From Candidatus Latescibacterota bacterium (GTDB lineage Bacteria > Latescibacterota > UBA2968): a stretch of DNA of 64,000 bases. The DNA is taken from NCBI GenBank assembly GCA_965222605.1, contig OZ244960.1, forward strand, positions 1,280,001 through 1,344,000. Direction: 5' to 3'. Positions 25,967 through 63,736 of this stretch are shown piece by piece. The notes below the pieces were generated by a model, which saw only the letters and a list, made by a program, of their open reading frames with translations, did not search any database and had not been told where the DNA came from. A program made the position numbers and the translations under genes. Position 1 is the first letter of the stretch. Each line of letters opens with the position of its first letter.

Positions 25967-26039
25967 GCGGAAAAGTGGGAAGATTGGAAAGTGAAGATGA
26001 CAACCCATCTGGATGATACGGAAACCCATGAGGTGTGTG

Positions 26040-26624
26040 ATGGCAACAGACATTGTAATTCCCCAAAAAGAGCGATGGACTTATGAAGACTATCTTCATC
26101 TCACTCCGCCAGACAATTTTGGATTTGAAATTTTGAGAGGAGAATTAGCAGTGGCTCCCGCACCGGTACCGAGACATCAATGGGCTTGTGATGAACTAAC
26201 GAGTTTGGTGCGTATATTTGTGAAACAGAACGACCTCGGGCGGGTTTTTAGTTCGCCAATAGATGTTATTCTGGGAGGACAGACAGAGGCAGAAAACGTC
26301 GTTCAACCGGATATCCTGTTCGTAGCCAAAGATCGCCTGGATATTATCACTGAAACCAATATTCTCGGCGTACCCGATTTGATGATTGAAGTTTTGTCTG
26401 CTTCAAGTATCCAACGGGATCGGGTCGATAAAATGAAAATATATGCCGAATTTGGCGTGAAGGAATATTGGATTATCGATGCAGATGAAAAAACGTTAGA
26501 GGCTTTTGACTTAACGGGCGACGAGCCTGTTCTACAAGCGACCCTGGCCGAGTCTGATGTGTTTAAACCAAAATTGTTTCCAGGATTAGAAATCTCACTC
26601 TCTGAACTCTGGTATCCCGAATGA
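26040..26624 (+). CDS. Uma2 (DUF820) family endonuclease-fold protein, copy 2
   Basis: Same motifs as copy 1; termini nearly identical to it. Confidence 0.9.
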   Translation: MATDIVIPQKERWTYEDYLHLTPPDNFGFEILRGELAVAPAPVPRHQWACDELTSLVRIFVKQNDLGRVFSSPIDVILGGQTEAENVVQPDILFVAKDRLDIITETNILGVPDLMIEVLSASSIQRDRVDKMKIYAEFGVKEYWIIDADEKTLEAFDLTGDEPVLQATLAESDVFKPKLFPGLEISLSELWYPE

Positions 26625-30661: not shown

Positions 30662-30822
30662 CCAGTCAAATAAAAAATAATTCCTTAATACCGTGAATGC
30701 GTCCCTCGGTGCCAACACGCCAACGAGCTTTGATCCCGAAACCTATATCCAGACAGATACCAATTTCAATTTTGCCTGTTCTGAGAAACCCATTTTCACA
30801 CCCTTATCACAGGAGGTACACG

Positions 30823-33590: not shown

Positions 33591-36500
33591 ATGAAACACG
33601 CTATTAAATCGCTCTCTCTTGCGCTCGGTACCATCAGTCTGCTGAGCTTTCTGCTTTTACTATTCCCGTGGTCGCTATCCACCCAGACCAGCAGCTTTTC
33701 GCTTTCTCTGGATTTGGATGGCTCGGAAGGCGATCAAGCAGCCTCCTCTCTCTATGTCTTTCCCAATCGCACGGTTTCCATCCAAATCTTTGGCACAGAT
33801 ATTGGGGCTGCAAGCGATATCTCCCTGCGCTTTGAATTCGATCCCTCTCAGGTTGCTTACGAAGGATTCAAGCGGGCAAATATCGTATCTGGTACCTCTG
33901 CGCTTACGGGCAAAGATTTTGCAAATATCGGGATAACGTTATCCAATAGTAATGCAACCAATAGCGGTCTTATAGGCACCATTCGCTTTCGCACGAGCGA
34001 GGCGTTTTCTGGCACAGACATACGTCTAATGCGTGCCAAACTTGTGCGAGAGGGAAAAACCGAGACCGTATCGATGGACCTGAGCATTACCTTGCGGCTT
34101 GCTAAACCGCCTTCTCCGGACTTTGACAGGAATGGGACGGTGGGTATCCCCGACTTTTTGCTCTTTGTCGATACATTTGGGTCCGAAAGAGGTCAAGATA
34201 CTTATGAGTCCAAATACGATCTGAATGTGGATGGCGAGATAGGGATCCCCGATTTTCTGATCTTTATCGATAACTTCGGCAAAGTAGTCAACCGCGCACC
34301 TGTCTTCACGTCAGAACCACCCGTGACGCTCTCCGTAGATGAGAACACGCCATCGGGACAGGCGATAGGTGATCCTATCACAGCCAGTGATGCTGAGGGC
34401 CATACGCTTACCTATCGCCTCAGCGGTGCCGATGCAGACAGTTTTGCCATAGACGCGAGCACAGGACAAATTCAGACGAAAGGGACGTACAACTTTGAGC
34501 AGAAGGACAGCTATTCCGTCACTGTCCATGTTAGTGATGGCGAAGGTGGTGAGGCCAGCCTTGCTGCAGGTATTGCCATCACTGACATCGACGAACCTCC
34601 TATGCAGCCTGCCCCACCGAGTGTCTCGGCGATCGCGCCCACAACCCTGACGGTAATCTGGGCAGAACCTTCCAACACGGGTCCTGAGATCACGGACTAC
34701 GACGTGCAATATCGACAAGCCGACAGTGATGTGTTGACAGATGCGGATTATGACGGAACGGAACGGTCAGTGCGTCTAACGGGACTGTTTTCAAGTACGC
34801 GCTATGCGATACAGGTGCGGGCGACTAACGAAGAAGGCACGAGTGCGTGGTCTGAGTCGAGTGAGTGGAGCACCTCTGCGCTGTCGATAATACCGGGAGG
34901 CGGCGGTACACCACCGCCTCCACGACCACCACCACGACCGCCTCCACGGCCTCAACCACCACCACAACCACCGGGTCCTAATCAGGTGCCAGTATTCACC
35001 GACGGACCGAGCACCTCGCGTAGCGTGGCTGAGAACACGGCACCCAATCAAAACATCCAGCATCCGGTCAGCGCCACCGATGCCGACCGTCACCGCCTGA
35101 CCTACCGTTTGAGCGGGGACGATGCCGGTTCATTCACCATCCATGCAGGCGGTCAGCTTCGCACCCGATCAGGCGTCACCTACGACTACGAAGAGAAGAA
35201 CAGCTATGAGGTGATCGTGCGCGTAGAAGACGGTCAGGGCGGCACAGCCACCATTGCCGTGACGATCCATGTGAGTGACGTCGATGAACCCCCCGAAGCT
35301 CCGGCGCGGCCCCGGGTCGAGCCCGCCTCTTCAACCAGCCTGACAGTAAGTTGGACCGAGCCAAACAATACCGGACCCGGCATCGACGACTACGACATCC
35401 AATATCGGACGGGCAGCGGTAGCTTCATCCCCTATCAGCACAACACCGGCACGACCACAACCATCACAAACCTGCAGGTGAACACGCGCTACGAGGTGCA
35501 GGTGCGGGCGCACAACGACGAAGGTGAAAGCCTGTGGTCCCCCTCGGGCTTCGGGACGACCAGTGCCAACCAGCGACCGGTATTCGACGAAACTGCGCCA
35601 ACGCGCAGCCTGGTCGAGAACACAACCGGGACCCACAACATCGGCAACCCCATAAGCGCGACCGACCCGGAGGGCCGCACGGTGAGCTACAGCCTTGCAG
35701 GTGGGGACACGGATCAGTTCACGATTGCCCCAGGCATCGGCCAGCTTCGCACACAGACCGGCGTGGATTACAACTACGAGGTGCGAAATCGCTATTCGGT
35801 GACGGTCGAGGCACAGGATGAGCAGGGTGGTCGTGCGACCATCACAGTGACGATTGACATAACTGATGACGACAACGAACGGCCAGAAAGACCCGACCGT
35901 CCCTCGGTGACGGCCTCAACACTGAATAGTCTATCCATACGTTGGACGGAACCAACAAACACCGGTCCCAACATCAATGACTACGACGTGCAGTACAGGA
36001 AGGCCAGCGACTCGTTCGATGACTGGCCGCACAATGGACCCGGCACGAGTACGACCATCACCAGCCTGGAGGCCAACACATCCTACCGGGTGCAGGTACT
36101 GGCACGTAGTCCCGAAGGACAGAGCGATTGGTCCGAATCCGTTACTGTGAGCACTGTCGCCAATCAAGCTCCCACGTTCACCGAAGGTTCGAGCGCCACG
36201 CGCAGGTTGGCAGAGAACACGACGGGTACCCACAACGTCGGCAACCCGATCACCGCCACCGACGGCGACGGGGGGACGCTGACCTATCGTCTCGAAGGCA
36301 CGGACCGGGCCTCCTTTGCTCTCGATGACAACCAGCTTCAGACGGTAGCGGGCGTCGCTTACGACTACGAAGAAAAGAACAGCTATGAAGTAACCGTACG
36401 CGTAGAAGACGGTCAGGGCGGCAGCAACACCATCGAGGTGGCGATCAATCTGACAGACGAACAGGAACCGCCCGGGGACCCGGCAGCACCCAGCGTCATA

Positions 36501-39500
36501 CCGGCCTCATCCACCAGCCTGACCGTGACCTATGACGAGCCGGCCAACACCGGTCCCGACATTGACGACTACGACATCCAGTACCGCGAAGGGGACAGCG
36601 GCGGCTTCACCTCCTATACACACAACGGCGCGGAACTCGCCGCAACCATCACCGGTCGGAGCCCGGGCACGAGCTATGAGGTGCAGGTGCGAGCGCACAA
36701 CGACGAAGGCACGAGCGATTGGTCGCCGTCGGGCACGGGAAGCACCGACCCCAACCAGCCGCCGGTCTTCACCGACGGGTCGAGCGCAACGCGCGCCCTC
36801 GACGAGAACACCACGGACGTGCAGAACATTGGCGATCCGGTAAGCGCCACCGACCCGGAGAACACCACGCTGACCTATAGCCTCGAAGGCACGGACAAAG
36901 ATGCCTTCACCATTGACACGGGTAGTGGTCAACTTCGGACCGACCGCGACGAGACCTACGATTACGAGACGAAGCCCCGCTATGTTCTGAGGGTCAAAGC
37001 GACCGACGGGCACGGCGGCAGCAGCACCATCCTCGTGTTGATAAACCTGAACGACGTCAATGAGCCGCCGGCGTTCACCAGCGACGCGGCCTTCGAGACT
37101 GGGGAAAATGGCACGAGGGTCGGCGAAGTGGTCGCCCGCGATGAGGATAGTGCCGACGATATCACGAATTACACCATCACCGGCGGGTCCGACCAGAACC
37201 TGTTCGAGATCGACAGCGGAGGCGCGTTGACTTTCAAGGAGGCCCCCGACTTCGAGAATCCCACGGATTCTGGAAGTAATAACACATACATCGTCGAGGT
37301 CACAGTGACCGGCGGCACGGAAGGCCGCGCACTGACCGTAGCGCAGACCATCACCGTCACTGTCACCGACGAGAACGAACCGCCACATTTCACCAGTGAT
37401 GCTACCTTCACGGTACAGGAAAATACCCAGTTTGTCGGCCAGGTGACCGCCGATGATGTCGATAGCGGCGATGGTATCACCGGCTACGCGATCACCGGTG
37501 GGGCTGATAGGAACCTATTCGAGATCACCAACACCAACGAGTTGCACTTCAAAGAGGACCCCGACTGGGAGCGTCCGGCGGCTGCGGGAGGCGACAACGA
37601 ATACATCGTCGAGGTCACGGCGACCGGCGGCACGAACACCCGAGAGCGAACAACAACGCAGGCGATAACCGTCACTGTGGAGGACGACGACGAACCTCCG
37701 GGTAAACCCGACGCGCCCACGGTGAGCAACGAGACGGAAAATAGCCTCACCGTGATCTGGACCGAGCCGACCAATACCGGGCCTGAGATCACGAACTACC
37801 ATGTGCAATATCGCATAAATAGTGCGTTCACGGATTGGCCGGACACCGGCCCGTCCCTGACCCGCACGATCACCGGCCTGCGCTCGGGGACCTACCAGAT
37901 CCAGGTACAGGCGGAGAACGACGAAGGGAAGGGCGCGTGGTCCAATTCCGTCAACGGGACCACGCTCACCGCGCCGACGGTATCGAGTATCGCGTTCACC
38001 TCGACGCCGGCCTCCGGGCAGAACAATACCTACAAATTGAACGACGTGATCGACGTGACCGTGACCTTCAATGATGCGGTAACCGTCACCGGCACACCGC
38101 AGATCGACCTGACGATAGGTACTACCGTGCGCCAGGCCGACTACAAAAGCGGCTCGACCACCACCCAGCTTCTCTTCCAATACACCGTGCAAGCTGACGA
38201 CGAGGACGCCGACGGCGCAAGCATCAACGCCAACGGCCTCAAGCTCAACAGCGGAAGCATCCTCGGAACCAATTCCACAATAAACGCGGATCTGGCACAC
38301 GCGGCACTCACCAATCAGTCCACCCACAAAGTCGATGGCATCGCGCCGGGGCTTATCGACGCAGAAGTAATGGGCGACGAGTTGACACTGGCCTATGACG
38401 AGGTGCTCGACAGCAATTCGAGACCGGCGACCAGCGATTTCGCGGTAACGGTAGATGGCACGGCGAGGGACGTCTCAGTTGCGATGAGCAGCAGTGAGGT
38501 GACGCTCACCCTCGCCTCGGCCGTAACATCGGGCCAGGCGGTAAGACTGACCTACACGCCGGGGACCAACCCGATACGCGACCGGGCGCAAAACCCGGCC
38601 ATCGCCCTTACAAACTTGACAACGGCGAACCGAGTCCAACCAATCGTCAGTGTCTGCGATCGTACCGATCAGGTGCGCGACGCGATTGTAGAGGCATCTC
38701 CTGTTAGTACTTGCGGTGCTGTCACGGCGAAACATCTATCTGAGATCACCCGCCTCATTCTGAGTTTTGAGAGTATCTCGAAGCTGAAAGCCAACGACTT
38801 TTCCGGGCTGACGGCACTGACAAGGCTCGATCTGTCAGGAAACGGATTCAGGACACTCCCGGAGAATCTCTTTTCCAGCCTGTCGGCACTGAAACAACTC
38901 ATACTGCCCTACGGCCGACTCAGCAACTTGCCGGCGAATATCTTCTCCAACCTGTCAGCACTGACATGGCTCGATCTGCGCAGCAACAAACTCAGCAGCT
39001 TGGATGCAAGCGCGTTTTCGGGTCTTACAGCACTTGAATGGCTCCGGCTGCAGAACAACGAACTCAGCAGTCTGGATGAGAATATCTTTTCCGACCTAAC
39101 GGCACTGAAAGATCTCTCTCTATCCCGTAACAAACTCAGCAGCCTAAATGCAAATATCTTCTCCGACCTGTCGGCACTGGAATTACTCTACCTGTACAGC
39201 AACGAACTCAGCAGTCTGGATGAGAATATCTTTTCCGACCTAACGGCACTGAAAGAACTCCACCTGCACAACAACGAACTCAGCAGTCTGGATGAGAATA
39301 TCTTTTCCGACCTAACGGCACTGAAAGAACTCCACCTGCACAACAACGAACTCAGCAGTCTGGATGAGAATATCTTTTCCGACCTAACGGCACTGAAAGA
39401 ACTCTACCTGGAGGAAAACGAACTCAGCAGCCTGAATGCAAACGCGTTTTCGGGTCTGACAGCACTTAAAATTCTCACCCTGTTCGGGAACGATCTACAA

Positions 39501-40178
39501 TCAACCTCCCTACCGACGGGTGTATTTTCCAATTTGACAGAACTTGAAACGCTCCGCCTGGACGACAACCAACTCAGCAGCCTGCCAGCAAATCTCTTTT
39601 CCGGGCTGTCATCTCTTCGATTACTCCATCTCGGCGACCAACAATCCGGCCACCAACTCAGCAGCCTGGACGCGAATATCTTTTCCAACCTATCGGCACT
39701 TGAAACGCTCCACCTGGAAAACAACAACTTCAGCAGCCTGGACGCGAACATATTTTCCGGACTGACTGAGATGAGAGAGCTCTCTCTGGGCAACAACCAA
39801 CTCAGCAGCCTGCCCGATGACATATTTTCTGGACTGACTGAGATGACAACGCTCAAACTGGCGGGCAATACGGTTGATCCCTTGCCCATTACCATTTCCC
39901 TTGAATCAATTACCAGCGGTCTATTCAGGGCCAAAGCACACACCGGCGCGCCCTTTGCGATGACCCTGCCACTTCAGGTGGTCAATGGCACCATTGACGG
40001 CGGCACAAGCAGCGTCACAATCTCCCGGGGCAGTGTGGATAGTGAGATCCTCACAGTATCCCGCATGGCCGGCACCACTGCTGCCGTCACCGCTGACATC
40101 GGAACATTGCCAGACTTGCCTCCGCGCAACAGCGGCTACGCACTCGTCAAATCCGCGGACTTGCCACTGGAAGCGTAA
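33591..40178 (+). CDS. Gene A: secreted modular protein (cohesin-like, dockerin-like, cadherin/FN3 stalk, SwmB-like, LRR block)
   Basis: Signal peptide, DFDRNGTVGIPDF/DLNVDGEIGIPDF pair, DYE/N..P.F cadherin repeats, FN3 (W.EP..TGP.I..Y.VQY), 24-aa LRRs. Confidence 0.88.
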   Translation: MKHAIKSLSLALGTISLLSFLLLLFPWSLSTQTSSFSLSLDLDGSEGDQAASSLYVFPNRTVSIQIFGTDIGAASDISLRFEFDPSQVAYEGFKRANIVSGTSALTGKDFANIGITLSNSNATNSGLIGTIRFRTSEAFSGTDIRLMRAKLVREGKTETVSMDLSITLRLAKPPSPDFDRNGTVGIPDFLLFVDTFGSERGQDTYESKYDLNVDGEIGIPDFLIFIDNFGKVVNRAPVFTSEPPVTLSVDENTPSGQAIGDPITASDAEGHTLTYRLSGADADSFAIDASTGQIQTKGTYNFEQKDSYSVTVHVSDGEGGEASLAAGIAITDIDEPPMQPAPPSVSAIAPTTLTVIWAEPSNTGPEITDYDVQYRQADSDVLTDADYDGTERSVRLTGLFSSTRYAIQVRATNEEGTSAWSESSEWSTSALSIIPGGGGTPPPPRPPPRPPPRPQPPPQPPGPNQVPVFTDGPSTSRSVAENTAPNQNIQHPVSATDADRHRLTYRLSGDDAGSFTIHAGGQLRTRSGVTYDYEEKNSYEVIVRVEDGQGGTATIAVTIHVSDVDEPPEAPARPRVEPASSTSLTVSWTEPNNTGPGIDDYDIQYRTGSGSFIPYQHNTGTTTTITNLQVNTRYEVQVRAHNDEGESLWSPSGFGTTSANQRPVFDETAPTRSLVENTTGTHNIGNPISATDPEGRTVSYSLAGGDTDQFTIAPGIGQLRTQTGVDYNYEVRNRYSVTVEAQDEQGGRATITVTIDITDDDNERPERPDRPSVTASTLNSLSIRWTEPTNTGPNINDYDVQYRKASDSFDDWPHNGPGTSTTITSLEANTSYRVQVLARSPEGQSDWSESVTVSTVANQAPTFTEGSSATRRLAENTTGTHNVGNPITATDGDGGTLTYRLEGTDRASFALDDNQLQTVAGVAYDYEEKNSYEVTVRVEDGQGGSNTIEVAINLTDEQEPPGDPAAPSVIPASSTSLTVTYDEPANTGPDIDDYDIQYREGDSGGFTSYTHNGAELAATITGRSPGTSYEVQVRAHNDEGTSDWSPSGTGSTDPNQPPVFTDGSSATRALDENTTDVQNIGDPVSATDPENTTLTYSLEGTDKDAFTIDTGSGQLRTDRDETYDYETKPRYVLRVKATDGHGGSSTILVLINLNDVNEPPAFTSDAAFETGENGTRVGEVVARDEDSADDITNYTITGGSDQNLFEIDSGGALTFKEAPDFENPTDSGSNNTYIVEVTVTGGTEGRALTVAQTITVTVTDENEPPHFTSDATFTVQENTQFVGQVTADDVDSGDGITGYAITGGADRNLFEITNTNELHFKEDPDWERPAAAGGDNEYIVEVTATGGTNTRERTTTQAITVTVEDDDEPPGKPDAPTVSNETENSLTVIWTEPTNTGPEITNYHVQYRINSAFTDWPDTGPSLTRTITGLRSGTYQIQVQAENDEGKGAWSNSVNGTTLTAPTVSSIAFTSTPASGQNNTYKLNDVIDVTVTFNDAVTVTGTPQIDLTIGTTVRQADYKSGSTTTQLLFQYTVQADDEDADGASINANGLKLNSGSILGTNSTINADLAHAALTNQSTHKVDGIAPGLIDAEVMGDELTLAYDEVLDSNSRPATSDFAVTVDGTARDVSVAMSSSEVTLTLASAVTSGQAVRLTYTPGTNPIRDRAQNPAIALTNLTTANRVQPIVSVCDRTDQVRDAIVEASPVSTCGAVTAKHLSEITRLILSFESISKLKANDFSGLTALTRLDLSGNGFRTLPENLFSSLSALKQLILPYGRLSNLPANIFSNLSALTWLDLRSNKLSSLDASAFSGLTALEWLRLQNNELSSLDENIFSDLTALKDLSLSRNKLSSLNANIFSDLSALELLYLYSNELSSLDENIFSDLTALKELHLHNNELSSLDENIFSDLTALKELHLHNNELSSLDENIFSDLTALKELYLEENELSSLNANAFSGLTALKILTLFGNDLQSTSLPTGVFSNLTELETLRLDDNQLSSLPANLFSGLSSLRLLHLGDQQSGHQLSSLDANIFSNLSALETLHLENNNFSSLDANIFSGLTEMRELSLGNNQLSSLPDDIFSGLTEMTTLKLAGNTVDPLPITISLESITSGLFRAKAHTGAPFAMTLPLQVVNGTIDGGTSSVTISRGSVDSEILTVSRMAGTTAAVTADIGTLPDLPPRNSGYALVKSADLPLEA
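39201..39416 (+). repeat. 72-bp near-exact LRR-coding triplication
   Basis: NELSSLDENIFSDLTALKEL(H/Y)L x3 at 39201, 39273 and 39345; another copy near 39057. Confidence 0.9.
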
Positions 40179-40218
40179 CAGAGGGCAACAGCGACACGTA
40201 CACAGTGGTTCTGACCTC

Positions 40219-42648: not shown

Positions 42649-42666
42649 TGTTACCTCGCGCATTAT

Positions 42667-50700: not shown

Positions 50701-51473
50701 ACGACGTGATCGACGTGACCGTGACCTTCAACGATGCGGTAACCGTCACCGGCGCGCCGCAGATCGACCTGACGACAGGTACTACCGTGCGCCAGGCGGA
50801 CTATAAAAGCGGCTCGACCACGACCCAACTCCTCTTCCAATCCACCGTGCAGGCTGACGACGAGGACACCGATGGCGCAACCATCAACGCCAACGGCCTC
50901 AAGCTCAACGGCGGTAGCATCCGCAAAAAGGATTCCACCATAAACGCGGACCTCGCGCACGACGCCCAGACCGATCAATCCGGCCACAGGGTCGATGGCG
51001 TTGTGCCGACGCTCATTGACGCGAAAGTGAAGGGCGACGCGTTGACGCTGAGCATTGTTCCCGCGCCCGATACGCATTTCTCAGGCGCAAACGCGATTGC
51101 GGCCTTCAACGCTGCGGGAGGGACGAGCTATACGGGTGCAAAGGTGCCGGTGGAGAACGCTGTTGGGGGATCGGGCAGCCAGGACGGTCACTGGCGAGAG
51201 TCCGTGCTCGACGACGAACTCATGACGCCCAGAATTAGCGATCGCGTTGCGCACCCGCTGAGCGCGATTACGATTCAGTCACTCGCCGATATAGGCTACC
51301 GCGTCAATGTCACGCAGGCCGACGCCTACACGGTGCCCGACCCATCTACGCGAGTGGCCACGGCGTCCGCGGGGGATTCGGTTCCGATCAGCTGTGCGAT
51401 CATAACCCACCCCGGCACCGGGCCGGATCGGCCTGAACCCATTGTCCTGAAGGTGAAGCCGGCAGGTAACTGA
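50686..51473 (+). pseudogene. B': frameshifted, internally deleted remnant of B's former C-terminus (Ig-like domain + M8 tail without HExxH)
   Basis: About 55-bp deletion relative to A/C at ~50686. GDALTLS joins directly to IVPAPDTHF at ~51050. Confidence 0.75.
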
Positions 51474-51492
51474 TGTTACGCACTGACACACT

Positions 51493-54400: not shown

Positions 54401-57400
54401 ACGTCAACGAGCCGCCGGAGTTTACCAGTGACGCAACCTTCCAGACTGGGGAAAACAACCCGTCCATCGGCCGTGTGGAGGCGCGCGATCTCGATAACGC
54501 CGATGACATCACCGGCTACACCCTCACCGGCGGTGCTGACCGTGACCTGCTTGAGATCGACAGCGCCGGCGCACTGACCTTCAAAGATGCCCCCAACTTC
54601 GAGGATCCCACGGACAACGGCAGGAACAACACATACATCATCGTGGTCACGGTAACCGGCGGCGCGGGAGGCCGCGCCCTGGCCGCACAGCAGACCATCA
54701 CCGTCACCGTCACCGACGTGAACGAACCGCCCCGTTTCACCAGTGACGGTGCCCTGCGGGGCAAGGAAAACATCCGTTTTGTCGGCCGGATCGTCGCCGA
54801 GGACGTCGATAGCGACGACCACGTCACAGGCTACGAGGTCACCGGCTGGGCCGACCGGGACCGATTCGAGATCGCCAACACCGACGAGCTGCACTTCAAG
54901 GAGGCCCCCGACTGGGAGCGTCCGGCGGCCTCTCATAGCGGCAACCAGTACCTCGTCGCGGTCACGGCGACCAGCGGCACGGGGACGAGGGAGCGACGGG
55001 GGCAACAGGGGATAACCGTCATCGTGGAGAACGTCGACGAACCGCCGGGCAAGCCCGATCCGCCCACGGTGAGCGACGAAACCGAGAGCAGCCTGACCGT
55101 GACCTGGACCGAGCCGGCCAACACCGGTCCCGACATCGCGAACTACCACGTCCAGTACCGCATAGGCAGCAGCGGTGCGTTCACCGATTGGCCGGACACC
55201 GGCCCGTCCCTGACCCGCACGATCACCGGCCTGCGCTCGGGCCGAACCTACCAGATCCGGGTACAGGCGGAGAACGCAGAGGGCAAGGGCGCGTGGTCCA
55301 ATTCCGTCAACGGGACCACGCTCACCGCGCCGACGGTTTCGAGCGTCGCGTTCACCTCCACCCCGGCCTCCGGGCAGAACAACACCTACAAATTGAACGA
55401 CGTGATCGACGTGACCGTGACCTTCAATGATGCGGTAACCGTCACCGTCACACCTCAGATCGACCTGACGATAGGTACTACCGTGCGCCAGGCCGACTAT
55501 AAAAGCGGCTCGACCACGACCCAACTCCTCTTCCAATACACCGTGCAGGCTGACGACGAGGACGTCGATGGCGCAAGCATCAACGCCAACGGCCTCAAGC
55601 TCAACGGCGGGGGCATCCGCAAGAACAACTCCACCATAAACGCGGACCTCGCGCACGACGCGCAGACCGATCAATCCGGGCACAAGGTCGATGGCGTTGT
55701 CCCGGCGCTCACCGAAGCGGAAGTAGAGGGAGACGAGTTGGCGCTGTTGTACGGCGAGGTGCTCGACAGCAGTTCCCAACCGGCGACCGGCGATTTCGCG
55801 GTAGCGGTAGATAGCGAGGCACGGAGCGTCTCTGAGATTGCGATGAGCAGCAGTGAGGTGAAGCTCACCCTCGCCTCGGCCGTAACATCGGGCCAGGCGG
55901 TAAGACTGACCTACACGCCAGGGACCCATCCGATCCGCGACCCGGCGCAGAACCCGGCTATCGCCCTCACGAATCTGACGGTGGCAAACCTAACTCAGGA
56001 CCCGACCATCAATATCTGCAACCGCACCGCGCAGGTACGCGACGCGATCGTCGCGGCTGCGCCGGTAAGCACCTGCGGTGCTGTAACGGCGGACCATCTA
56101 TCCGCGATTACCGTCCTCGACCTGGATGGCAAGAGCACATCGACGCTGAAAGCCGGGGATTTTTCCGGGCTGACGGCACTGGAATCTCTCGACCTGTCTT
56201 GGAACAGACTCAACAGCCTGCCGCAGAATATCTTTTCCAACCTGTCGGCACTGGAAAAACTCAAACTGTATGGCAACCAACTCAGCAGCCTGAATGATGC
56301 GGATATCTTTTCCAGCCTGTCGGCATTGAAAAGTCTCGACCTGAGAGGGAACGGTCTTCGCAGCCTGGACGCGAATATCTTTTCCAGCCTGTCGGCACTG
56401 GAAGTACTCTATCTGGGAGATAGCAACATACTCAGCAGCCTGGACGCGGATATTTTTTCCAACCTGTCCGCACTGGAAGAGCTCTACTTGAACGACAACG
56501 ACCTCAGCAGTCTGGATGCGAATATCTTCTCCAACCTGTCGGCACTGAAAACACTCTGGCTGAATAGAAACGACCTCAGCAGTCTGGATGCGAATATGTT
56601 TTCCAGCCTGTCAGCACTGAAAACACTCTGGCTGAATAGGAACGACCTCAGCACCGTGGCTTCGGGTACGTTTTCGGGTCTGTCAGCACTTGAAACGCTT
56701 CGCCTGGACTACAACGACCTCAGCAGTCTGGATGCGAATATGTTTTCCAGCCTGTCAGCACTGAAAACACTCTGGCTGAATAGGAACGACCTCAGCACCG
56801 TGGCTTCGGGTGCGTTTTCGGGTCTGTCAGCACTGGAAACGCTCTATCTGGACGGAAACGATCTGCAACCAACCTCCCTGCCGGTGGGCGTTTTTTCCAG
56901 TTTGACGGCACTTGAAACGCTTCGCCTGGACGACAACCAACTCAGCAGTCTGCCGGCCGATTTCTTTTCCGGGCTGTCATCACTTCGAGAACTCTTTCTC
57001 AGCGGTCAACAATCCGGTCACAAACTCGGCAGTCTGGACGCGAACACATTTTCCGGTCTCACCGCGCTGACAAGGCTCCACCTGGACGGCAACAACCTCA
57101 GCAGTCTGCCCGACGGCGTTTTTTCCGGACTGACCGCGCTTGAAGCGCTCATACTGGCGGGCAATACAGTCGATCCCCTGCCCATTACTGTTTCGCTGGA
57201 ATCGCCTGGCAGCCGTATATTCAGGGCCAGAGCGCACACCGGCGCGCCTTTTGCAATGACCCTCCCGCTCCAGGTGGTCAATGGCACGATCGGCGGTGGC
57301 GCCAGCAGCATCGAGATTCCCCAGGGCAGCGTGGAAAGCCGCCTTCTCTTCGTTTCCCGCACCGCCGGTACCACCGCTGCCGTCACCGTCGATGTCGGCA

Positions 57401-59919
57401 CATTGCCGGACTTGCCCTCAAGCGACAACGGCTACGCGCTCGTCAAATCCACCGACTTGCCGCTGGTAGTGATAGAAGGGCTACCGGGTGTGACAGTTTA
57501 TCCGACGGCGTTGACCATACCGGAGGGCAACAGCGACTCGTACACAGTGGTACTGCAATTGCAACCGACCGAAGACGTGACGGTCACAGTGACCGTGCCG
57601 GGAGGTTCGGATGCTTCCGTGAACCCCGCGAGGCTGACGTTCACGGAGGACAATTGGGACGATTCGCAAACGGTAACGGTCACCACAAAGACGGACACGG
57701 ACGACGCGGATGACACGGTCACGCTGAGTCATGCAGTAAGCGGCGGGAACTACGAGGGCGTGACCGCGGATAACGTGAACGTGACCATTGCAGAGGTGGA
57801 TGTCAGCGCCAACAATCGGCCGGTCTTCACCAGTGACGATATCTTCGACAAAAAGGAAAACGAAACCGAGGTCGGCACGGTGGTTGCCACGGATGCCGAT
57901 GCCAGAGACCCTATCACCGGCTATGAGATTACCGGCGGCGGTGCCCAGGCGCAGTTCTCGATCACGAGTGGGGGCGTATTGACCTTTGCGACCGCCCCCG
58001 ACTATGAGCGGCCACCCGCCACCGCGAGCAATAACAAATATGTCGTCGTGGTCACGGCGAGCAGCGGCACGGGCAGCCGGGAACGGACAGCGACTCAGAC
58101 GATAACCGTCAATGTAGATGACGTAGATGAACCTCCTGGACGGCCGCCGGCGCCGATACTGAGGGTTTTCAGCATCGGCAGTGGATTCGAGCCGGTCGTC
58201 CTGGTGCACGAGGGCCGGACAGCGCCGGCGAATACGGGTCCTGACATCACGGCCTGGGACGTTCAGTATAACGTCAAGAACAGCGGCGCCTTCAGAGCCA
58301 CCATTTTGAACAAGCCACCGGATGTGGTGCAGGAAATCACGGGTTTATTCCGAAACACGACCTACGAGGTGCGGTTGCGGGCGAAGAACGACGAAGGGGA
58401 GAGCGAGTGGTCTCCTTCGTCCGAGGCGACGATCCCTAACGCCTCGCCGATAGCCAGCGGCAGCATTGACGATCTGACGATGCCCGCAGGGGGCGCCGTC
58501 GCGGTCGTGTTCGTGGATGACGCCTTCGATGATCCCGACGATTTTCGCCTGCGATATACCGCGACGTCGAGCAACGGCGCCATCGCGACCGTGCGGATGA
58601 TCGGTGGCGTGGTCCTGATCGATCCGCTATCCGCCGGTACTGCGACCATTACCGCAACGGCGACCGACCCCTGGGGCGCGAATGCCTCGACAACCTTCGA
58701 CGCGACTGTTCAGACGCCGACCCTGTCGACGCCCACCCTGAGCATCAGCGACAATGTTTTCTCATTCGGATTCACCGATGACTTCGCCGCCAACGAAACC
58801 CGGTATTACGACGTCAGAATCCGGCAAAAGTCGCCTGTCGGACGGTGGTCCGGGGCATGCATCCGCACCACGAACACGGCAGATTTCTCCCGGAACATCG
58901 CGGCGGCGCTGGATATCCTGGCCTCCAACTTCTTTGAGCCGGGCGCCACTTATGAAGCGGATTACGGATACCTGGGCGCCGATTGCGGCGGCAGCGTCGT
59001 GGGCGTTCGCTCCGCGCCTGCCGAAGCGACCACCGCCGGAACGCCTTCCTTCGATATCGACCTGGTCTTCGTCGGCAGCATCTCCTCGAGCTACCAGTTG
59101 GCGGTTGAAGCCGCCGCCCGGCGCTGGGAGCAGATCATCACGCACGACATCCCCCACCATTCCTTGTCCGATAACGCGCGCATTTTCTTGAACGAGCTTT
59201 ATCCGGAGAACGCCGCCCCCGACAACGTCGATGATCTGCTGATCTACGTGAAAATCGTACCCATCGACGGAGAAGGAGGCACACTCGGTCAAGCGGGATC
59301 GGATGTGTGGCGCATTTCGTCCGCCTTGCCGATCGTATCCTTCATAGAGCTTGACGCGGACGATCTGGATACATTGTCCGACCGACTACTGGCAGCCCTA
59401 ATGCTGCACGAGATGGGTCACACCCTGGGATACGGCCTTGAACCGTGGACAGATCACAATCTGCTGCAGAACCCATCCCTCGATGTGTATAACAACCGCA
59501 TTGTTCCCGCGCCCGATACGCATTTCTCAGGCGCAAACGCGATTGCGGCCTTCAACGCCGCAGGCGGTTCGAGCTACACGGGCGCGAAGGTGCCGGTGGA
59601 AAACACGCTTGGGGGATCGGGCAGCCGGGACAAGCACTGGCGTGAGTCCATCCTCGACAACGAACTCATGACGCCCAGAATCAGCGATCGCGTTGCGCAA
59701 TCGCTGAGCGCGATTACGATTCAGTCACTCGCCGATATAGGCTACCGCGTCGATGTCACGCAGGCCGACGCCTACATGGTGCCCGACCCATCGACGCGAG
59801 TGGCCACGGCGTCCGCGGGGGATTCGGTTCCGATCAGCTGTGCGATCATATCCCGCCCCGGCGCCGGACCCGATGAGCCTGAGCCTATCATCTTGAATCT
59901 ACAGCCTGCGGGTAACTAA
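51493..59919 (+). CDS. Gene C: intact full-length modular protein (cohesin-like, dockerin-like, cadherin/FN3, SwmB-like, LRR, M8-like metalloprotease)
   Basis: 2808-aa ORF; LRRs about 56.0-57.2 kb; HEMGH (59407-59421), HWRES, ELMT. Confidence 0.9.
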   Translation: MDYANMKHRVKIFPLALGIASVLSLLLLVFPLSTQTSSFSLSLDLDNSEGDQAVSSLDVFPNRTVPIQIFCTDIASASDISLRFEFDPAQVAYEGFKRANIVSGTSALTGKDFANIGITLSNSNATNSGLIGTIHFRTTEAFSGTDILLVRARLVRGGQTETVSMDLSITLRLAKPPSPDFDRNGTVGIPDFLLFVDTFGSERGQDTYESKYDLNVDGEIGIPDFLIFIDSFGKVVNRAPVFTSEPPVTLSVPENTPSGQAIGEPISATDGDGHTLTYRLSGADADSFAIEESTGQIQTKGTYNFEQKDSYSLIVYVSDGEGGEASLAAGIAITDIDEPPGQPAPPSVSAIAPTTLTVIWTEPSNTGPEITDYDVQYRQADSDVFKDADYDGTERTVRLTELFSSTRYAIQVRATNEEGASEWSESSEWSTSALSLPPGGGGTPPPRPPPRPPPRPPPRPPPPPPPPPPQPPSNKPPTFDDGSSTTRSLAENTTGTHNIGNPIRATDPEGRTVSYSLTGGDTESFTIDPNIGQLRTQNSVDYNYEVRNRYSVRVEAADEQGGRATITVTIDITDDDNERPERPDRPAVTTSTLNSLSIRWTEPTNTGPDINDYDVQYRKASDSFDDWPHNGPGTSTTITSLEANTSYEVRVLARSPEGQSDWSESVTVSTVANQAPTFNEGSRTTRRLAENTTGTQDIGNPITAADSDGGTLTYRLEGTDQASFALNDNQLQTRASETYDYEEKNSYEVTVRVEDDQGGSNTIEVTINLINQQEPPETPDPPSVSAASSTSLAVTWDEPNNTGPDIDDYDIQYREGDSGGFTSWRHNSTDLTATITGRSPGTSYEVQVRAHNDEGTSDWSPSGTGSTDPNQPPVFTDGSSAARSFDENTTGVQDIGDPVGATDPENTALTYSLEGTDADAFTINSRSGQLRTKSDQTYDYEAQPRYVLRIKATDGHGDERTITVLINLNDVNEPPEFTSDATFQTGENNPSIGRVEARDLDNADDITGYTLTGGADRDLLEIDSAGALTFKDAPNFEDPTDNGRNNTYIIVVTVTGGAGGRALAAQQTITVTVTDVNEPPRFTSDGALRGKENIRFVGRIVAEDVDSDDHVTGYEVTGWADRDRFEIANTDELHFKEAPDWERPAASHSGNQYLVAVTATSGTGTRERRGQQGITVIVENVDEPPGKPDPPTVSDETESSLTVTWTEPANTGPDIANYHVQYRIGSSGAFTDWPDTGPSLTRTITGLRSGRTYQIRVQAENAEGKGAWSNSVNGTTLTAPTVSSVAFTSTPASGQNNTYKLNDVIDVTVTFNDAVTVTVTPQIDLTIGTTVRQADYKSGSTTTQLLFQYTVQADDEDVDGASINANGLKLNGGGIRKNNSTINADLAHDAQTDQSGHKVDGVVPALTEAEVEGDELALLYGEVLDSSSQPATGDFAVAVDSEARSVSEIAMSSSEVKLTLASAVTSGQAVRLTYTPGTHPIRDPAQNPAIALTNLTVANLTQDPTINICNRTAQVRDAIVAAAPVSTCGAVTADHLSAITVLDLDGKSTSTLKAGDFSGLTALESLDLSWNRLNSLPQNIFSNLSALEKLKLYGNQLSSLNDADIFSSLSALKSLDLRGNGLRSLDANIFSSLSALEVLYLGDSNILSSLDADIFSNLSALEELYLNDNDLSSLDANIFSNLSALKTLWLNRNDLSSLDANMFSSLSALKTLWLNRNDLSTVASGTFSGLSALETLRLDYNDLSSLDANMFSSLSALKTLWLNRNDLSTVASGAFSGLSALETLYLDGNDLQPTSLPVGVFSSLTALETLRLDDNQLSSLPADFFSGLSSLRELFLSGQQSGHKLGSLDANTFSGLTALTRLHLDGNNLSSLPDGVFSGLTALEALILAGNTVDPLPITVSLESPGSRIFRARAHTGAPFAMTLPLQVVNGTIGGGASSIEIPQGSVESRLLFVSRTAGTTAAVTVDVGTLPDLPSSDNGYALVKSTDLPLVVIEGLPGVTVYPTALTIPEGNSDSYTVVLQLQPTEDVTVTVTVPGGSDASVNPARLTFTEDNWDDSQTVTVTTKTDTDDADDTVTLSHAVSGGNYEGVTADNVNVTIAEVDVSANNRPVFTSDDIFDKKENETEVGTVVATDADARDPITGYEITGGGAQAQFSITSGGVLTFATAPDYERPPATASNNKYVVVVTASSGTGSRERTATQTITVNVDDVDEPPGRPPAPILRVFSIGSGFEPVVLVHEGRTAPANTGPDITAWDVQYNVKNSGAFRATILNKPPDVVQEITGLFRNTTYEVRLRAKNDEGESEWSPSSEATIPNASPIASGSIDDLTMPAGGAVAVVFVDDAFDDPDDFRLRYTATSSNGAIATVRMIGGVVLIDPLSAGTATITATATDPWGANASTTFDATVQTPTLSTPTLSISDNVFSFGFTDDFAANETRYYDVRIRQKSPVGRWSGACIRTTNTADFSRNIAAALDILASNFFEPGATYEADYGYLGADCGGSVVGVRSAPAEATTAGTPSFDIDLVFVGSISSSYQLAVEAAARRWEQIITHDIPHHSLSDNARIFLNELYPENAAPDNVDDLLIYVKIVPIDGEGGTLGQAGSDVWRISSALPIVSFIELDADDLDTLSDRLLAALMLHEMGHTLGYGLEPWTDHNLLQNPSLDVYNNRIVPAPDTHFSGANAIAAFNAAGGSSYTGAKVPVENTLGGSGSRDKHWRESILDNELMTPRISDRVAQSLSAITIQSLADIGYRVDVTQADAYMVPDPSTRVATASAGDSVPISCAIISRPGAGPDEPEPIILNLQPAGN
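56569..56856 (+). repeat. 144-bp (two-LRR) tandem duplication in gene C
   Basis: NDLSSLDANMFSSLSALKTLWLNRNDLSTVASG(T/A)FSGLSALETL twice. Confidence 0.85.
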
Positions 59920-59938
59920 TGTTGCGCACTGACACACT

Positions 59939-60736
59939 ATGGATTATACCAATATGAAACACCACATTAAAATATTCCCGCTCGCGCTCGGCACCTTCGG
60001 CTTGCTGAGCCTGATACTCTTATTTGCCCCGTGGTCTCTTTTTTCCCAAAATAGCAGCCCGCCATCCCCGGACTTTAATGACAATGGGACGGTTGATATC
60101 CCCGACTTTTTGCTCTTTGTCGATGCGTTTGGGTCTCAGGAAGGCCGGGAAAAGTATGATGCAAAATACGATCTGGACGGTAATGGCGAGATAGGGATTC
60201 CCGATTTTCTGATCTTTGTCGATAACTTCGGCGAAGTAGTAAAGCGCCTGCCGCCCACCTGCATGCCAACCTCAGGCCACCTGCACCCCAAAGTGACCCT
60301 GTCAGACAGAGCCGGGCAATACCAGCTAACGCTTGTAGAGGTTGTCAACGGCACCGACGCCCGCTCCGCACAGGGCACGCTTACCCTGCGCCAGCAACCA
60401 TCGGGACTCGAATCGCTGGGCAGTGCAGCGACACCATTGTACGGATTTACAAACGTGAATCTCCGCGCAGTTGGTGCTTATGAAGTCGGCGATCCCGATA
60501 GTGAAGACCCACAGGCACCGGGCGTTCTCGTGCTCGAAAGCGATCGCGATGGCACACGCCGCATATTGTTGCGCCTCGGCGCAGACGCCAATCGACGAGA
60601 CGACATGCTCTTCGACGGAGCCTATACGGTACTGGAAGTGCGGGAAATTGCCGCTGACGGTTTTGCAGGCACCTGGCGTAGCGGCCTGCGATTATCGCGT
60701 ATCGAAGGCTACTTTTGCGCGAGAAGAGAATTCTAA
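59939..60736 (+). CDS. Gene D: signal peptide + dockerin-like pair + unrecognised beta-rich domain
   Basis: Same signal-peptide family; DFNDNGTVDIPDF/DLDGNGEIGIPDF; no cohesin-like domain. Confidence 0.85.
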   Translation: MDYTNMKHHIKIFPLALGTFGLLSLILLFAPWSLFSQNSSPPSPDFNDNGTVDIPDFLLFVDAFGSQEGREKYDAKYDLDGNGEIGIPDFLIFVDNFGEVVKRLPPTCMPTSGHLHPKVTLSDRAGQYQLTLVEVVNGTDARSAQGTLTLRQQPSGLESLGSAATPLYGFTNVNLRAVGAYEVGDPDSEDPQAPGVLVLESDRDGTRRILLRLGADANRRDDMLFDGAYTVLEVREIAADGFAGTWRSGLRLSRIEGYFCARREF

Positions 60737-60760
60737 GAACAACTTGAAAGTAAGGAATCT

Positions 60761-63217
60761 ATGACAACATTTTTGAATGAAAACCAAACAGTAGCCTCTG
60801 CTGTGGGAGTCACATCCTATTTCCAGACGCGAGATACCACACACATAAACTTCTATAAGTTAATAAAAAACAAAGTATTACCCCCCCCCCCCCGCATTTC
60901 TCACACCTGGTATATCAGTTTACTGAGCCTTCTGCTCTTGCTATTTCCCCTATCCACACAGACCAGTAGCTTTTCCCTGTCTCTGGACTTAGATAATTCC
61001 GAAGGCGATCAGGCAGTCTCCTCTCTCGATGTCTTTCCCAATCGCGTTGTTCCCATTCAAATCTTCGGCACAGATATAGGGACTGCAAGCGATATCTCCC
61101 TGCGCTTTGAATTCGATCCCTCTCAGGTTGCTTACGAAGGATTCAAGCGGGCAAATATCGTATCGGGCACCTCTGCGCTTACGGGTAAGGATTTTGCAAA
61201 TATCGGGATAACCCTATCGGCAGGTAATGCATATAGTGGTCTTATAGGCACGATTCACTTTCGCACGAGCGAGGCGTTTTCTGGCACAGACATACGTCTA
61301 ATGCGTGCCAAACTTGTGCGAGGAGGACAGACCGAGACCGTATCGATGGACCTGAGCATTACCTTGCGGCTTGCGAAACCGCCTTCTCCGGACTTTAATG
61401 GCAATGGGATTGTAGATATCCCCGACTTTTTGCTCTTTGTTGATGTATTTGGTTCCCGAAGAGGTCAAGAGAGTTATGAGGCAAAATACGACCTTGATGT
61501 GGATGGCGAGATAGGGATCCCCGATTTTCTGATCTTTATCGATAGCTTCGGCAAAGTGGTCAACCGCGCACCGGTCTTCACGTCAGAGCCTCCTGTGATG
61601 CTCTCCGTAGATGAGAACACGCCATCGGGACAGACGATAGGTGATCCTATCTTAGCAACCGATGGCGATGGCCATACGCTTACCTATCGCCTCAGCGGTG
61701 CCGATGCAGACAGTTTTGCCATAGACGAGAGCACAGGACACATTCAGACGAAAGGGACGTACAACTTTGAGCAGCAGGACAGCTATTCCGTCACTGTCCA
61801 TGTTAGTGATGGCGAAGGTGGCGAAGCCAGTCTTGCTGTGAGCATCACTATCAACGACATCGATGAACCTCCAGGACAGCCTGCCCCACCGAGTGTCTCG
61901 GCGATCGCGCCCACAACCCTGACGGTAATCTGGACAGAACCTTCCAACACCGGTCCTGAGATCACCGACTACGATGTGCAATATCGACAAGTCGACAGTG
62001 ATGAGTTCATCGATGCGAATTATGACGGCACAGAACGGACGGTGCGTCTGACGGAACTGTTTTCAAGCACGCGCTATGCGATACAGGTGCGGGCGCACAA
62101 TGAAGAAGGCGCGAGTGAATGGTCTGAGTCGAGTGAGTGGAGCACCTCTGCGCTGTCGCTACCACCAGGAGGCGGCGGTACACCACCGCCACCACCGCCA
62201 CCACCGCCACCACCGCCACCACGACCACCACCACGACCTCAACCACCACCGCAACCACCACCGCCAATCGCCAGCATTTGTGATCGTGTGCCGCCGATAC
62301 GCGACGCAATCGTGAACGCGATTCCCGACGTGGATGCTTGCAGAGACGTGACGGAAAGCCACCTGGCCGAGATTGCTTCTCTGGACGTGAGACACAAGGA
62401 TATAAGGGGACTGGACGCCAGCGACTTTTCCGGTCTGACGGGCATGGAAGATCTCGTGTTGGAGCATGTCGATATAAGGGTGTTGCCCAATGGCGTTTTT
62501 TCCGGCCTGATCTCCTTAAAAAAGATCAAGATATACGACGGCCGTCTGAGCGAATTGAACGCCGATATCTTTTCCGGCCTGCCCGCGCTCGAAAGCCTCG
62601 ACTTGCGTGCCAACTATCTGACCACCTTACCCGCAGGCGTATTTTCCAGGCTGCCGAGCTTGAAGTCGATCTTCCTGTGGGGCAACAGATTGAGCTCCCT
62701 GGATGCTGGTACTTTTTTGGGTCTGCCGGTGCTGCAAAACCTCTCCCTGGCCGGCAACCAATTCAGCACCTTGCCGAAGAATGTGTTTTCCAATCTGCCG
62801 GCACTGGAAAAGCTCTACTTGTCTTACAATCAATTCAGCACCTTGCCAGAGAACATATTTTCCGGGCTGGAAGCCCTGAAATGGCTTGATCTGGAAGGCA
62901 ATCCCGGCACGCCCTTGCCCATTACGGTGTCGCTGGAACAGGTTGGAGCGGGCCAATTCAAGGCTAAAGCGCACGCCGGCGCGCCCTTTGATATCGCGTT
63001 GCCGATCAGTATCGCCAACGGCACCATTGACGGTGGGACAAGCAGCATCACGATCCATCAAGGTCAGGCCGAAAGCGATGTCATCAGGGTATCTCGCTCC
63101 CCCGGCACCACCGCTGTCGTCACCGTTGATATCGAACAGTTGCCTGCACTGCCACTGTTACATCAAGGCTATACTCTCGTCAAGTCTGCTGACTTGCCCC
63201 TGGTCGTTTTGGAATGA
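60761..63217 (+). CDS. Gene E: shared N-terminal cassette joined directly to an LRR block
   Basis: Cohesin-like, dockerin-like, cadherin, FN3 and poly-Pro, then SICDR...LRRs. Atypical N-terminus with a C13 tract. Confidence 0.82.
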   Translation: MTTFLNENQTVASAVGVTSYFQTRDTTHINFYKLIKNKVLPPPPRISHTWYISLLSLLLLLFPLSTQTSSFSLSLDLDNSEGDQAVSSLDVFPNRVVPIQIFGTDIGTASDISLRFEFDPSQVAYEGFKRANIVSGTSALTGKDFANIGITLSAGNAYSGLIGTIHFRTSEAFSGTDIRLMRAKLVRGGQTETVSMDLSITLRLAKPPSPDFNGNGIVDIPDFLLFVDVFGSRRGQESYEAKYDLDVDGEIGIPDFLIFIDSFGKVVNRAPVFTSEPPVMLSVDENTPSGQTIGDPILATDGDGHTLTYRLSGADADSFAIDESTGHIQTKGTYNFEQQDSYSVTVHVSDGEGGEASLAVSITINDIDEPPGQPAPPSVSAIAPTTLTVIWTEPSNTGPEITDYDVQYRQVDSDEFIDANYDGTERTVRLTELFSSTRYAIQVRAHNEEGASEWSESSEWSTSALSLPPGGGGTPPPPPPPPPPPPPRPPPRPQPPPQPPPPIASICDRVPPIRDAIVNAIPDVDACRDVTESHLAEIASLDVRHKDIRGLDASDFSGLTGMEDLVLEHVDIRVLPNGVFSGLISLKKIKIYDGRLSELNADIFSGLPALESLDLRANYLTTLPAGVFSRLPSLKSIFLWGNRLSSLDAGTFLGLPVLQNLSLAGNQFSTLPKNVFSNLPALEKLYLSYNQFSTLPENIFSGLEALKWLDLEGNPGTPLPITVSLEQVGAGQFKAKAHAGAPFDIALPISIANGTIDGGTSSITIHQGQAESDVIRVSRSPGTTAVVTVDIEQLPALPLLHQGYTLVKSADLPLVVLE
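60881..60893 (+). repeat. Poly-C13 homopolymer in the 5' coding region of gene E
   Basis: 13 consecutive C. Confidence 0.9.
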
Positions 63218-63420: not shown

Positions 63421-63701
63421 TATGTCAACTGTTATACACCAAAACGAGTCAAGACCGGTCTAACCTCACCATACACCCCGCCGCGAACAATCAAGGGACA
63501 ATTCTTTCACCATGCCGCTCAAATGCATTGCGGGTCACCTTGTCGAAGCCGAAATGGTCGAAGTACCGGACGCTTTCCCTGGCGTCATGGAATCGACAAT
63601 CCTCAAAATACGGGTAATCGGCGAACGATGAACCACCGAGAAACGATGATATCTTACCCGTGGGCTATTCAGAACTACAAATACCCAAAGCTACCTAATA
63701 G

Positions 63702-63736
63702 AAAACGCCTGAGCTATAACACTCAGGCGTTTTTTT
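63702..63736. terminator. Bidirectional intrinsic terminator
   Basis: AAAACGCCTGAG-loop-CTCAGGCGTTTTTTT. Confidence 0.8.

Follow-up and report, generated by a model that had tools for sequence, protein, structure and literature searches.

Docking of cohesin modules to dockerin modules is understood almost only as a way of building polysaccharide-degrading machines in Gram-positive anaerobes. We analysed a stretch of 64,000 nucleotides (referred to here as the window) from the genome of a Candidatus Latescibacterota bacterium, in a phylum of which we know of no cultured member. The source genome is a single contig of 6.34 Mb with an estimated completeness of 98.68%, and the closest relatives with a name are Latescibacteria/Latescibacterota MAGs. 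At 33591-63217 of the window lies an array of genes, four of which encode proteins that share an N-terminal head. We read this head as one cohesin followed directly by one dockerin. From the sequences, from structural models and by analogy with described systems, we consider it rather probable that these heads serve as adaptors within a docking network of cohesins and dockerins that is genome-wide and non-cellulolytic.

The cellulosomal pairs (Clostridium thermocellum CipA, with PDB entries 3kcp, 4fl4 and 2ccl, and Acetivibrio cellulolyticus 4uyp) have the same beta-sandwich fold in the cohesin and, in the dockerin, the same pair of Ca loops with nearly symmetrical helices, and in both cases the modules are found on exported proteins. 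The present genome differs from a cellulosome in several respects. It has no multi-cohesin scaffoldin, and no cellulase or cellulose-binding module was seen among 93 dockerin-only open reading frames (ORFs). The host is a diderm, the candidate anchors carry a tail of the kind used in type IX secretion (T9SS) instead of SLH or sortase signals, and the modules of the window score under the Pfam cut-offs.

The closest described case for a single protein with both modules is Amy4 of the Ruminococcus bromii amylosome. Its cohesin was shown experimentally to bind its own dockerin and the dockerins of other enzymes, and multimerisation together with recruitment of other dockerin proteins was proposed from the measured binding (accessible part of PMC4611034). 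As described there, Amy4 is like the heads in being an exported protein with both a cohesin and a dockerin. It is, however, an amylase from a Gram-positive host with the modules apart in the chain, whereas in the heads they are adjacent and N-terminal. Again unlike Amy4, the heads are followed by a stalk and by cargo other than glycosidases, and there are 15 of them in the genome.

A second related case is that of Ca. Stygibacter (Cloacimonadota), for which a cellulosome-like system was inferred in silico, with a cohesin scaffoldin that carries a T9SS C-terminal domain (CTD) (accessible part of PMC8542988). Like the present system, it belongs to a diderm of the FCB group and combines a cohesin bearing a C-terminal attachment domain with dockerin-tagged exported proteins. 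In the same portion of that paper, one scaffoldin of 3755 aa carries tandem cohesins and carbohydrate-binding modules, and the dockerins are on hydrolases and peptidases. Here, in contrast, the cohesins are single, cohesin-dockerin heads are present, and the cargo is mostly WD40, Ig-like and leucine-rich repeat (LRR) proteins. More distant relatives, the cohesins of Archaeoglobus fulgidus (2xdh) and Clostridium perfringens (2jh2), were met in our structural searches at ranks 21 and 41 respectively. The cohesins of these two species are used outside cellulose degradation and occur in few copies per genome, and to our knowledge neither species has a large dockerin repertoire.

The shared head and its two modules

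We observed that genes A, C, E and G of the array open with the same head of ~440 aa, which consists of a signal peptide, a beta domain, a double Ca-loop module, a cadherin domain, an FN3 domain and a poly-Pro stretch. The initial annotation, in which our genes A, C, E, F and G were named A, B, C, D and E, had proposed this cassette for the same four genes, and both the alignments and the Pfam matches agree with it. Among the four proteins, pairwise identity is 82-91% in the beta domain, 84-100% in the Ca-loop module (99-100% for A, C and E alone) and 86-95% over cadherin plus FN3. The beta domain and the Ca-loop module are encoded back to back on the + strand, at 33684-34106 and 34107-34295 in A (residues 32-172 and 173-235), 42769-43191 and 43192-43380 in C, 51595-52017 and 52018-52206 in E, and 60959-61378 and 61379-61567 in G.

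By its predicted structure and its sequence relatives, the beta domain is a divergent cohesin. We aligned 33 heads, 4 from the window and 29 from Latescibacterota genomes. The 29 were taken from 33 loci, of which we dropped L027 and L031 as longer matches with gaps, L032 as a dockerin alone and L033 as a Caulobacteraceae match of 27% identity. An AlphaFold2 (AF2) model of A residues 1-240 built from this alignment had a pLDDT of 85.1 and a pTM of 0.69, and it placed 10 strands between residues 37 and 170, where the local pLDDT was about 90. When the model was compared with the PDB using Foldseek, 39 of the 41 matches listed were cohesins, the other two being one integrin and one glycosidase. 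The best E was 6.7e-10, for 3kcp_A, and 4uyp_A, for example, had E 2.7e-8 (TMt 0.69; the maximum TMt was 0.70). The cohesin fold that had been suggested for the first domain of the head was thus recovered in the structural comparison.

The sequence relatives point the same way. A HMMER search with A residues 32-172 returned only 270 cluster representatives among 1.84 billion at E<=1e-3. Pfam Cohesin was matched by 9 of the 20 representatives scanned (E<=0.01), and 8 of these exceeded the cut-off of 24.1 bits, with 75.8 bits for P0009 and 38.1, 31.6 and 33.4 bits for others. A paralogous cohesin at genome position 1277270 scored 23.8 bits, or 24.1 together with its neighbours. Several relatives carry the domain in tandem: seven copies followed by a dockerin in P0009, and arrays of five, four and three copies without any dockerin in P0010, P0011 and P0012. 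An ORF of 1835 aa in genome G041 has 3 cohesins. The tandem-cohesin relatives (P0009-P0012; G041:C1:586549-589953) are scaffoldin-like, and some of them are joined to LRR blocks. When the profile of the 33 heads was run against PDB sequences, the best 60 of 173 matches held only dockerins and EF-hand proteins and no cohesin.

The duplicated Ca-loop module is, by its motifs and its homologues, a dockerin. It contains two 12-residue Ca loops, with the motifs DFDRNGTVGIPD and DLNVDGEIGIPD, and each loop is followed by a helix of the pattern FLxFxDxFG, which gives the module the internal symmetry of type I dockerins. Positions 1 and 12 of both loops were invariant in the 33 heads (D177, D188, D210 and D221), and the model placed helices at residues 186-193 and 219-227. 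A phmmer search of the PDB with the dockerin of A retrieved 2y3n_B (E 3.2e-4), and the profile of the 33 heads (A1) retrieved seven dockerin chains of known structure, with E from 2.7e-9 to 3.6e-5 and ranked above calmodulin-type EF hands. These matches to solved structures bear out the earlier assignment of the EF-hand-like pair as a dockerin. Other dockerins of the same genome reach 32.6 and 38.5 bits against Dockerin_1.

What follows the head varies. The Pfam families in the window proteins were Cadherin, fn3, LRR_8, Peptidase_M8 and GSDH. LRR blocks were present in A, E and G. Peptidase_M8, a leishmanolysin-like family, scored 45.3 bits in E and 27.2 bits in a separate piece at 40198-42648, and GSDH scored 453.8 bits over 2 stretches in C, the best being residues 2153-2471. 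The variable cargo of LRRs, M8-like protease and PQQ dehydrogenases noted in the initial annotation was therefore seen with Pfam as well. Among the Pfam matches of the window's seven products at E<=0.01, there were no Por_Secre_tail, autotransporter, RTX or sortase-type families.

Gene F (59939-60736, + strand, 265 aa) had been described as carrying the Ca-loop pair and no beta domain, and this held: its dockerin (60059-60247) gave 22.0 bits with Dockerin_1, and it had no cohesin. Its signal peptide and Ca-loop pair are related to those of the heads and are head-derived. The C-terminal ~160 aa were modelled as an eight-stranded beta-barrel with two invariant Cys (AF2, pLDDT about 90). When the barrel was compared with VIA-align, designed barrels scored Z 9.8 (105 aligned, rmsd 3.1) and lipocalins and avidins Z 6-7, a likeness of predicted fold class and not of function. 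We found 440 homologues of the barrel, mostly of about 200 aa and without a dockerin. The C-terminal GxFCA motif was retained in 102 of the best 120 of these, and 17 of the 102 have a dockerin, about 44 a lipobox-like signal and 41 neither (the lipobox count comes from a crude regular expression and is indicative only). By this comparison, the dockerin in this lineage occupies the place that a lipid anchor has in many relatives of the F barrel. The barrel belongs to an unnamed family without a Pfam entry (P0159-P0278), many members of which have lipoprotein-type signals.

Modules across the genome and candidate anchors

We further estimated the number of both modules with HMMs iterated on the stop-to-stop ORFs of the genome. 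We found 109 dockerin ORFs and 15 ORFs with a cohesin-dockerin head, plus one fragment. The cohesins numbered 19, of which 15 were in heads and 4 on T9SS-tailed proteins, and no ORF with two cohesins was present in this genome. The system that the initial annotation had placed in the array is present there, but these counts show it to be much wider. Across the phylum, with the cohesin alone as query, 61 of 151 sampled genomes gave a match: 29/29 in the family of the window, 18/19 and 2/2 in two other families, 11/64 in a fourth and 0/36 in ten more. As the head is found on 15 ORFs of the genome and the cohesin in 61/151 genomes of the phylum, the head is not a chance arrangement.

Among the 105 dockerins of at least 50 aa, 15 follow a cohesin, 30 are N-terminal behind a signal peptide, 54 are at the extreme C-terminus and 6 are internal, and a single consensus is common to every positional class. 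We scanned the 93 dockerin-only ORFs outside the window with Pfam at E<=1e-7 and tallied their cargo by hand. There were 11 WD40 propellers, 14 He_PIG Ig-like proteins, 8 LRR proteins, about 19 enzyme-like proteins and 25 without a family, together with several CARDB, cadherin-like, NHL and FG-GAP proteins. The enzyme-like cargo comprised three redoxins, GSDH, arylsulfotransferase, three DUF4955, GH113, chondroitinase B, PL8 lyase, sulfatase, FGE-sulfatase, BNR_4, M10, S8, Vgb-lyase, DUF1501 and one M8. Of these, GH113, chondroitinase B, the PL8 lyase, the three DUF4955, BNR_4 and the sulfatase are the carbohydrate- or sulfate-active families. Cellulases, xylanases and cellulose-binding modules were absent from the 93 at this threshold. 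The non-cellulolytic character proposed for the cargo thus extended from the window proteins to the rest of the genome. By their family assignments, the small number of polysaccharide enzymes suggest sulfated or animal-type glycans as substrates, not plant walls.

Head genes often have dockerin-only genes for neighbours. Eight of the 15 adjoin such a gene, counting E and G, which both flank F, and the dockerin-only neighbours include three F-type barrels and three redoxins. The three small dockerin-tagged AhpC/redoxin genes stand directly beside head genes at L040, L058:1896-2855 and L063:1-759 (genome 698847, 2783027 and 3390738).

The four cohesins outside the heads are all joined to FlgD_ig/Por_Secre_tail, the T9SS CTD, and all lie outside the window. 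Two of them are 268-aa proteins that consist of a signal peptide, the cohesin and the tail (genome 2787078-2787884 and 6190360-6191166). These are 95% identical, and their tail is below the Por_Secre_tail cut-off. The other two are large proteins of 1329 and 1560 aa, encoded next to each other, which terminate in dockerin-cohesin-tail. One of the 268-aa genes clusters with a head gene, a dockerin-redoxin gene and another dockerin gene (L058). Por_Secre_tail had only 6 matches in the genome, 2 of them on cohesin proteins. Judged by their domain make-up, these four proteins are likely to be anchors, and a route of anchoring through them is plausible.

An outer membrane is indicated by the TonB-dependent receptor encoded at 30697-33348, upstream of the array, and we infer that the window proteins are exposed at the surface. 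The initial annotation had found no anchoring signal, and this stands for the window proteins, which have no sorting tail; it does not stand for the genome, where the T9SS-type CTD is present on the four other cohesin proteins. As for other T9SS components, a SprA_N-like ORF of 2086 aa was found at genome 204338-205807. GldK (TIGR03525) gave 28 matches, all below threshold. They agree with the FGE-sulfatase domain that many proteins have in common with GldK and were uninformative; one of them is in the FGE-sulfatase dockerin protein. A 382-aa ORF with a GldK-like/FGE-sulfatase domain (102 bits, far under the GldK cut-off; genome 2640203-2641102) is found 2 kb away from the pair of dockerin-cohesin-CTD genes.

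How the modules may dock

We propose that, once the proteins have been exported by Sec, a head's dockerin would dock, in a Ca-dependent manner, into the cohesin of a tail-anchored protein of the outer membrane or into that of another head. The head's own cohesin would then take a further dockerin protein, which may be another giant protein, F or one of the ~90 dockerin-only proteins. The outcome would be short branched or chained assemblies that present, at the envelope, binding domains of eukaryote-like type along with a few enzymes, with the cadherin-FN3-polyPro stalk keeping the cargo away from the docking point. The dominant partner would be set by abundance and affinity, as for R. bromii Amy4. 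Use of the cohesins in trans is suggested because relatives carry dockerin-free tandem arrays of the same cohesin type, because dockerins far outnumber cohesins and because so many head genes (8/15) adjoin a dockerin-only gene.

Several observations weigh against this proposal. The cohesins of the window gave no match to Pfam Cohesin even at E<=10, and Dockerin_1 scored 18.3 bits in A, 18.8 in G and 22.0 in F, under the cut-off of 22.9. With 19 cohesins to 109 dockerins, the two modules are far from one to one. The head and CTD cohesins are unlike by profile (hhalign E 0.38, for a 268-aa protein), and as there is no significant similarity between the profiles they may not share partners. A CTD was absent from the window proteins (Pfam, E<=0.01), and neither secretin (PF00263) nor GldM_1st (PF12081) was found in this genome of 98.68% estimated completeness. 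GldL (TIGR03513) also had no match, a weak negative as the model matched 0/14 control genomes too. These negatives bear on how the tail-less giant proteins would cross the outer membrane. Finally, the linker between the cohesin and the dockerin of the head (AKPPSP) is about 6 residues, which allows binding in cis. A complex prediction for cohesin 34-172 with dockerin 173-236, each with its own alignment and run without controls, scored 0.02 against a mark of 0.32 and is no evidence either way.

The initial annotation had proposed that the heads chain to one another. In its pure form this is a head-to-head daisy chain, a homotypic or heterotypic lattice with F as chain terminator. The presence of both modules in one polypeptide does permit multimerisation in principle, as in the self-binding Amy4, and the near-identity (99-100%) of the A, C and E dockerins is in keeping with it. 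So is a signature, Ile-Pro at positions 10-11 of the loop in both repeats, which is common to the eight heads of the clade that includes the window's and to five dockerin-only proteins with the dockerin at the N-terminus; these five include F and two paralogues that follow other head genes, while most other dockerins have Phe-x at these positions. The signature hints, at the sequence level, at a sub-specificity favouring head-head and head-F pairs. However, this co-variation is weak and not independent, since the head and its signature are passed on as a single unit and the signal peptide and dockerin of F are head-derived. The ~90 other dockerin proteins would also compete for the few cohesins, and four separate CTD-cohesins exist elsewhere, which makes the head more likely an adaptor than a purely head-to-head unit. 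The general idea of chaining may thus survive as one part of the adaptor network, but as the whole account we consider it unlikely. The short linker invites a different explanation, that the cohesin clasps the dockerin of its own chain to form a closed, stable knob at the N-terminus that plays no part in assembly. The pair is always together in the 15 paralogues and the 29 further Latescibacterota heads, and the pTM of the single-chain model would also agree with this. Self-occupation of the 15 head cohesins would, however, leave 4 cohesins for about 94 dockerin-only proteins, and the dockerin-free tandem arrays of P0010, P0011 and P0012 show this cohesin type used in trans. Such a clasp therefore seems to us quite improbable.

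The place of the dockerin in the F-barrel relatives, where it stands in the position of the lipobox-type signal of about 44/102, raises the further idea that the dockerin is a sorting or hitch-hiking tag, by which dockerin proteins bind cohesin-CTD carriers in the periplasm and are taken through or onto the outer membrane. This would suit the 109 dockerin proteins with Sec-type signals, those of the window having no CTD, as well as the failure to find secretin in the genome and the small set of Por_Secre_tail matches, 2 of the 6 being on cohesin proteins and the tail of the 268-aa pair falling below the cut-off. We know of no precedent for piggy-back T9SS export, which counts against it. The T9SS motor genes GldL and GldM were not detected (the GldL model being weak), and passage in a folded, docked state would be required of a 2800-aa cargo. 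We regard export by such a tag as very improbable. A broader version would make the dockerin a general envelope-sorting tag that replaces lipid anchors and secretion tails, with ~100 proteins, including eukaryote-like adhesins of 2000-3000 aa, carried onto (perhaps through) the outer membrane by the four T9SS-tailed cohesins, and with the heads polymerising the giants into an exchangeable, recombination-diversified coat facing an animal host. From the present comparisons that picture as a whole is distinctly unlikely, and we favour the adaptor network.

The array, its surroundings and what the system may mean

The long ORFs at 33591-63217 are on the + strand without exception and are spaced 19-24 bases apart. 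The initial annotation listed the five genes of the array correctly, but it did not list two further pieces, at 40198-42648 and 50682-51473. Gene A (33591-40178, + strand) encodes 2195 aa as assembled, in the order signal peptide, cohesin, dockerin, cadherin, FN3, poly-Pro, cadherin/FN3 repeats, SWM repeat and LRR block (about 38733-39887). Gene C (42667-50700, + strand, 2677 aa) has the head, cadherin/FN3 repeats, two GSDH propellers of the PQQ-type sugar dehydrogenase kind and FN3. Gene E (51493-59919, + strand, 2808 aa) has the head, cadherin/FN3 repeats, an LRR block, further cadherin/FN3 and an M8-like protease (about 59230-59772) with the motif HEMGH, and by comparison with the other genes it is the complete form of the protein in the array. 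Gene G (60761-63217, + strand, 818 aa) consists of the head, with its cadherin, FN3 and poly-Pro, and an LRR block. Its 5' end is unlike that of its paralogues, with ~45 residues ahead of the hydrophobic core if ATG 60761 is used, and either its true start or the position of its signal peptide is uncertain. A terminator-like site with a 14-bp stem lies downstream of G at 63700-63735, and a scan for sigma-70 promoters 5' of gene A gave 0 sites.

The piece at 40198-42648 (+ strand) is a continuation of A in a different frame, with cadherin, FN3 and an M8-like metalloprotease with the motif HEIGH. In tblastn comparisons, A residues 237-1991 aligned to E at 70% identity, and E residues 2009-2808 aligned to 40198-42648, in frame 2, at 66% identity. 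At the junction, the assembly is missing a segment after 40175 and has a 23-base direct duplication. Short-read contigs from runs X1, X5 and X9 (three studies) have 46/49 more letters at 40175 and 23 fewer at 40198, and the net gain of 23 letters puts A and the piece in one frame; X1 may be the source sample. On these alignments, the split is an assembly error or a variant, with a possible stop in the 46-49 inserted letters, and A probably represents another E-like protein, about 3000 aa long.

The piece at 50682-51473 (+ strand) contains an SWM-repeat part joined directly to the last ~139 residues of an M8-like protease. In tblastn, 50682-51050 corresponds to E residues 1296-1418 and 51054-51470 to E residues 2670-2808; the piece has no HExxH zinc site and is out of frame with C. 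By this mapping it is the remnant of two deletions. Its inner joint is bridged with zero differences by an X1 contig (50974-51081). The contigs over 50300-51500 are fragmented by repeats and cannot judge the frame change at 50682-50700. Such lesions, like the shuffling of the cargo, agree with recombination between the cadherin/FN3 modules that recur in these genes.

The array has a G+C content of 0.54-0.67 (window 34000-60000), against 0.47-0.52 elsewhere in the window. Horizontal transfer was considered as a cause of this difference; the repeats rich in Pro, Gly, Asp and Thr could account for it. Bases 1-30336 carry housekeeping genes, including those for threonyl-tRNA synthetase, IF-3, RNase Y, exonuclease VII, a RecN-like protein and the futalosine pathway. 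At 25376-26624, two tandem genes of the Uma2 family (putative restriction endonuclease-like) interrupt radical-SAM/CofH-like and other genes of menaquinone biosynthesis of the futalosine type. At 6765-10869, on the - strand, a gene for a HerA-like (DUF87/HAS-barrel) ATPase lies near a gene for a NurA-domain nuclease.

Both modules, the idea of non-cellulosomal docking and an inference in print of a T9SS-tailed cohesin are already known. 'Cellulosome-affiliated enzymes' in Latescibacteria are attributed to Farag et al. 2017 in the accessible part of PMC7081726. We found nothing in the open-access literature that joins Latescibacteria, dockerin and cohesin, and the combination of Latescibacteria and dockerin gave only fungal-microbiome titles. 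The word 'dockerin' has 0 occurrences in the accessible part of a paper on sponge-associated Latescibacterota genomes (PMC12993501). In open-access text, we found no description of an adjacent cohesin-dockerin head on giant eukaryote-like proteins, or of the scale and make-up of this dockerin repertoire.

In this diderm, the plug and socket appear to organise ~100 mostly non-enzymatic, eukaryote-like binding proteins. If the binding holds, the modules would supply new orthogonal cohesin-dockerin pairs for protein engineering. It would also give a candidate explanation for the localisation of proteins without a known outer-membrane signal, and a simple, testable rule by which such bacteria would build their surface and vary it.

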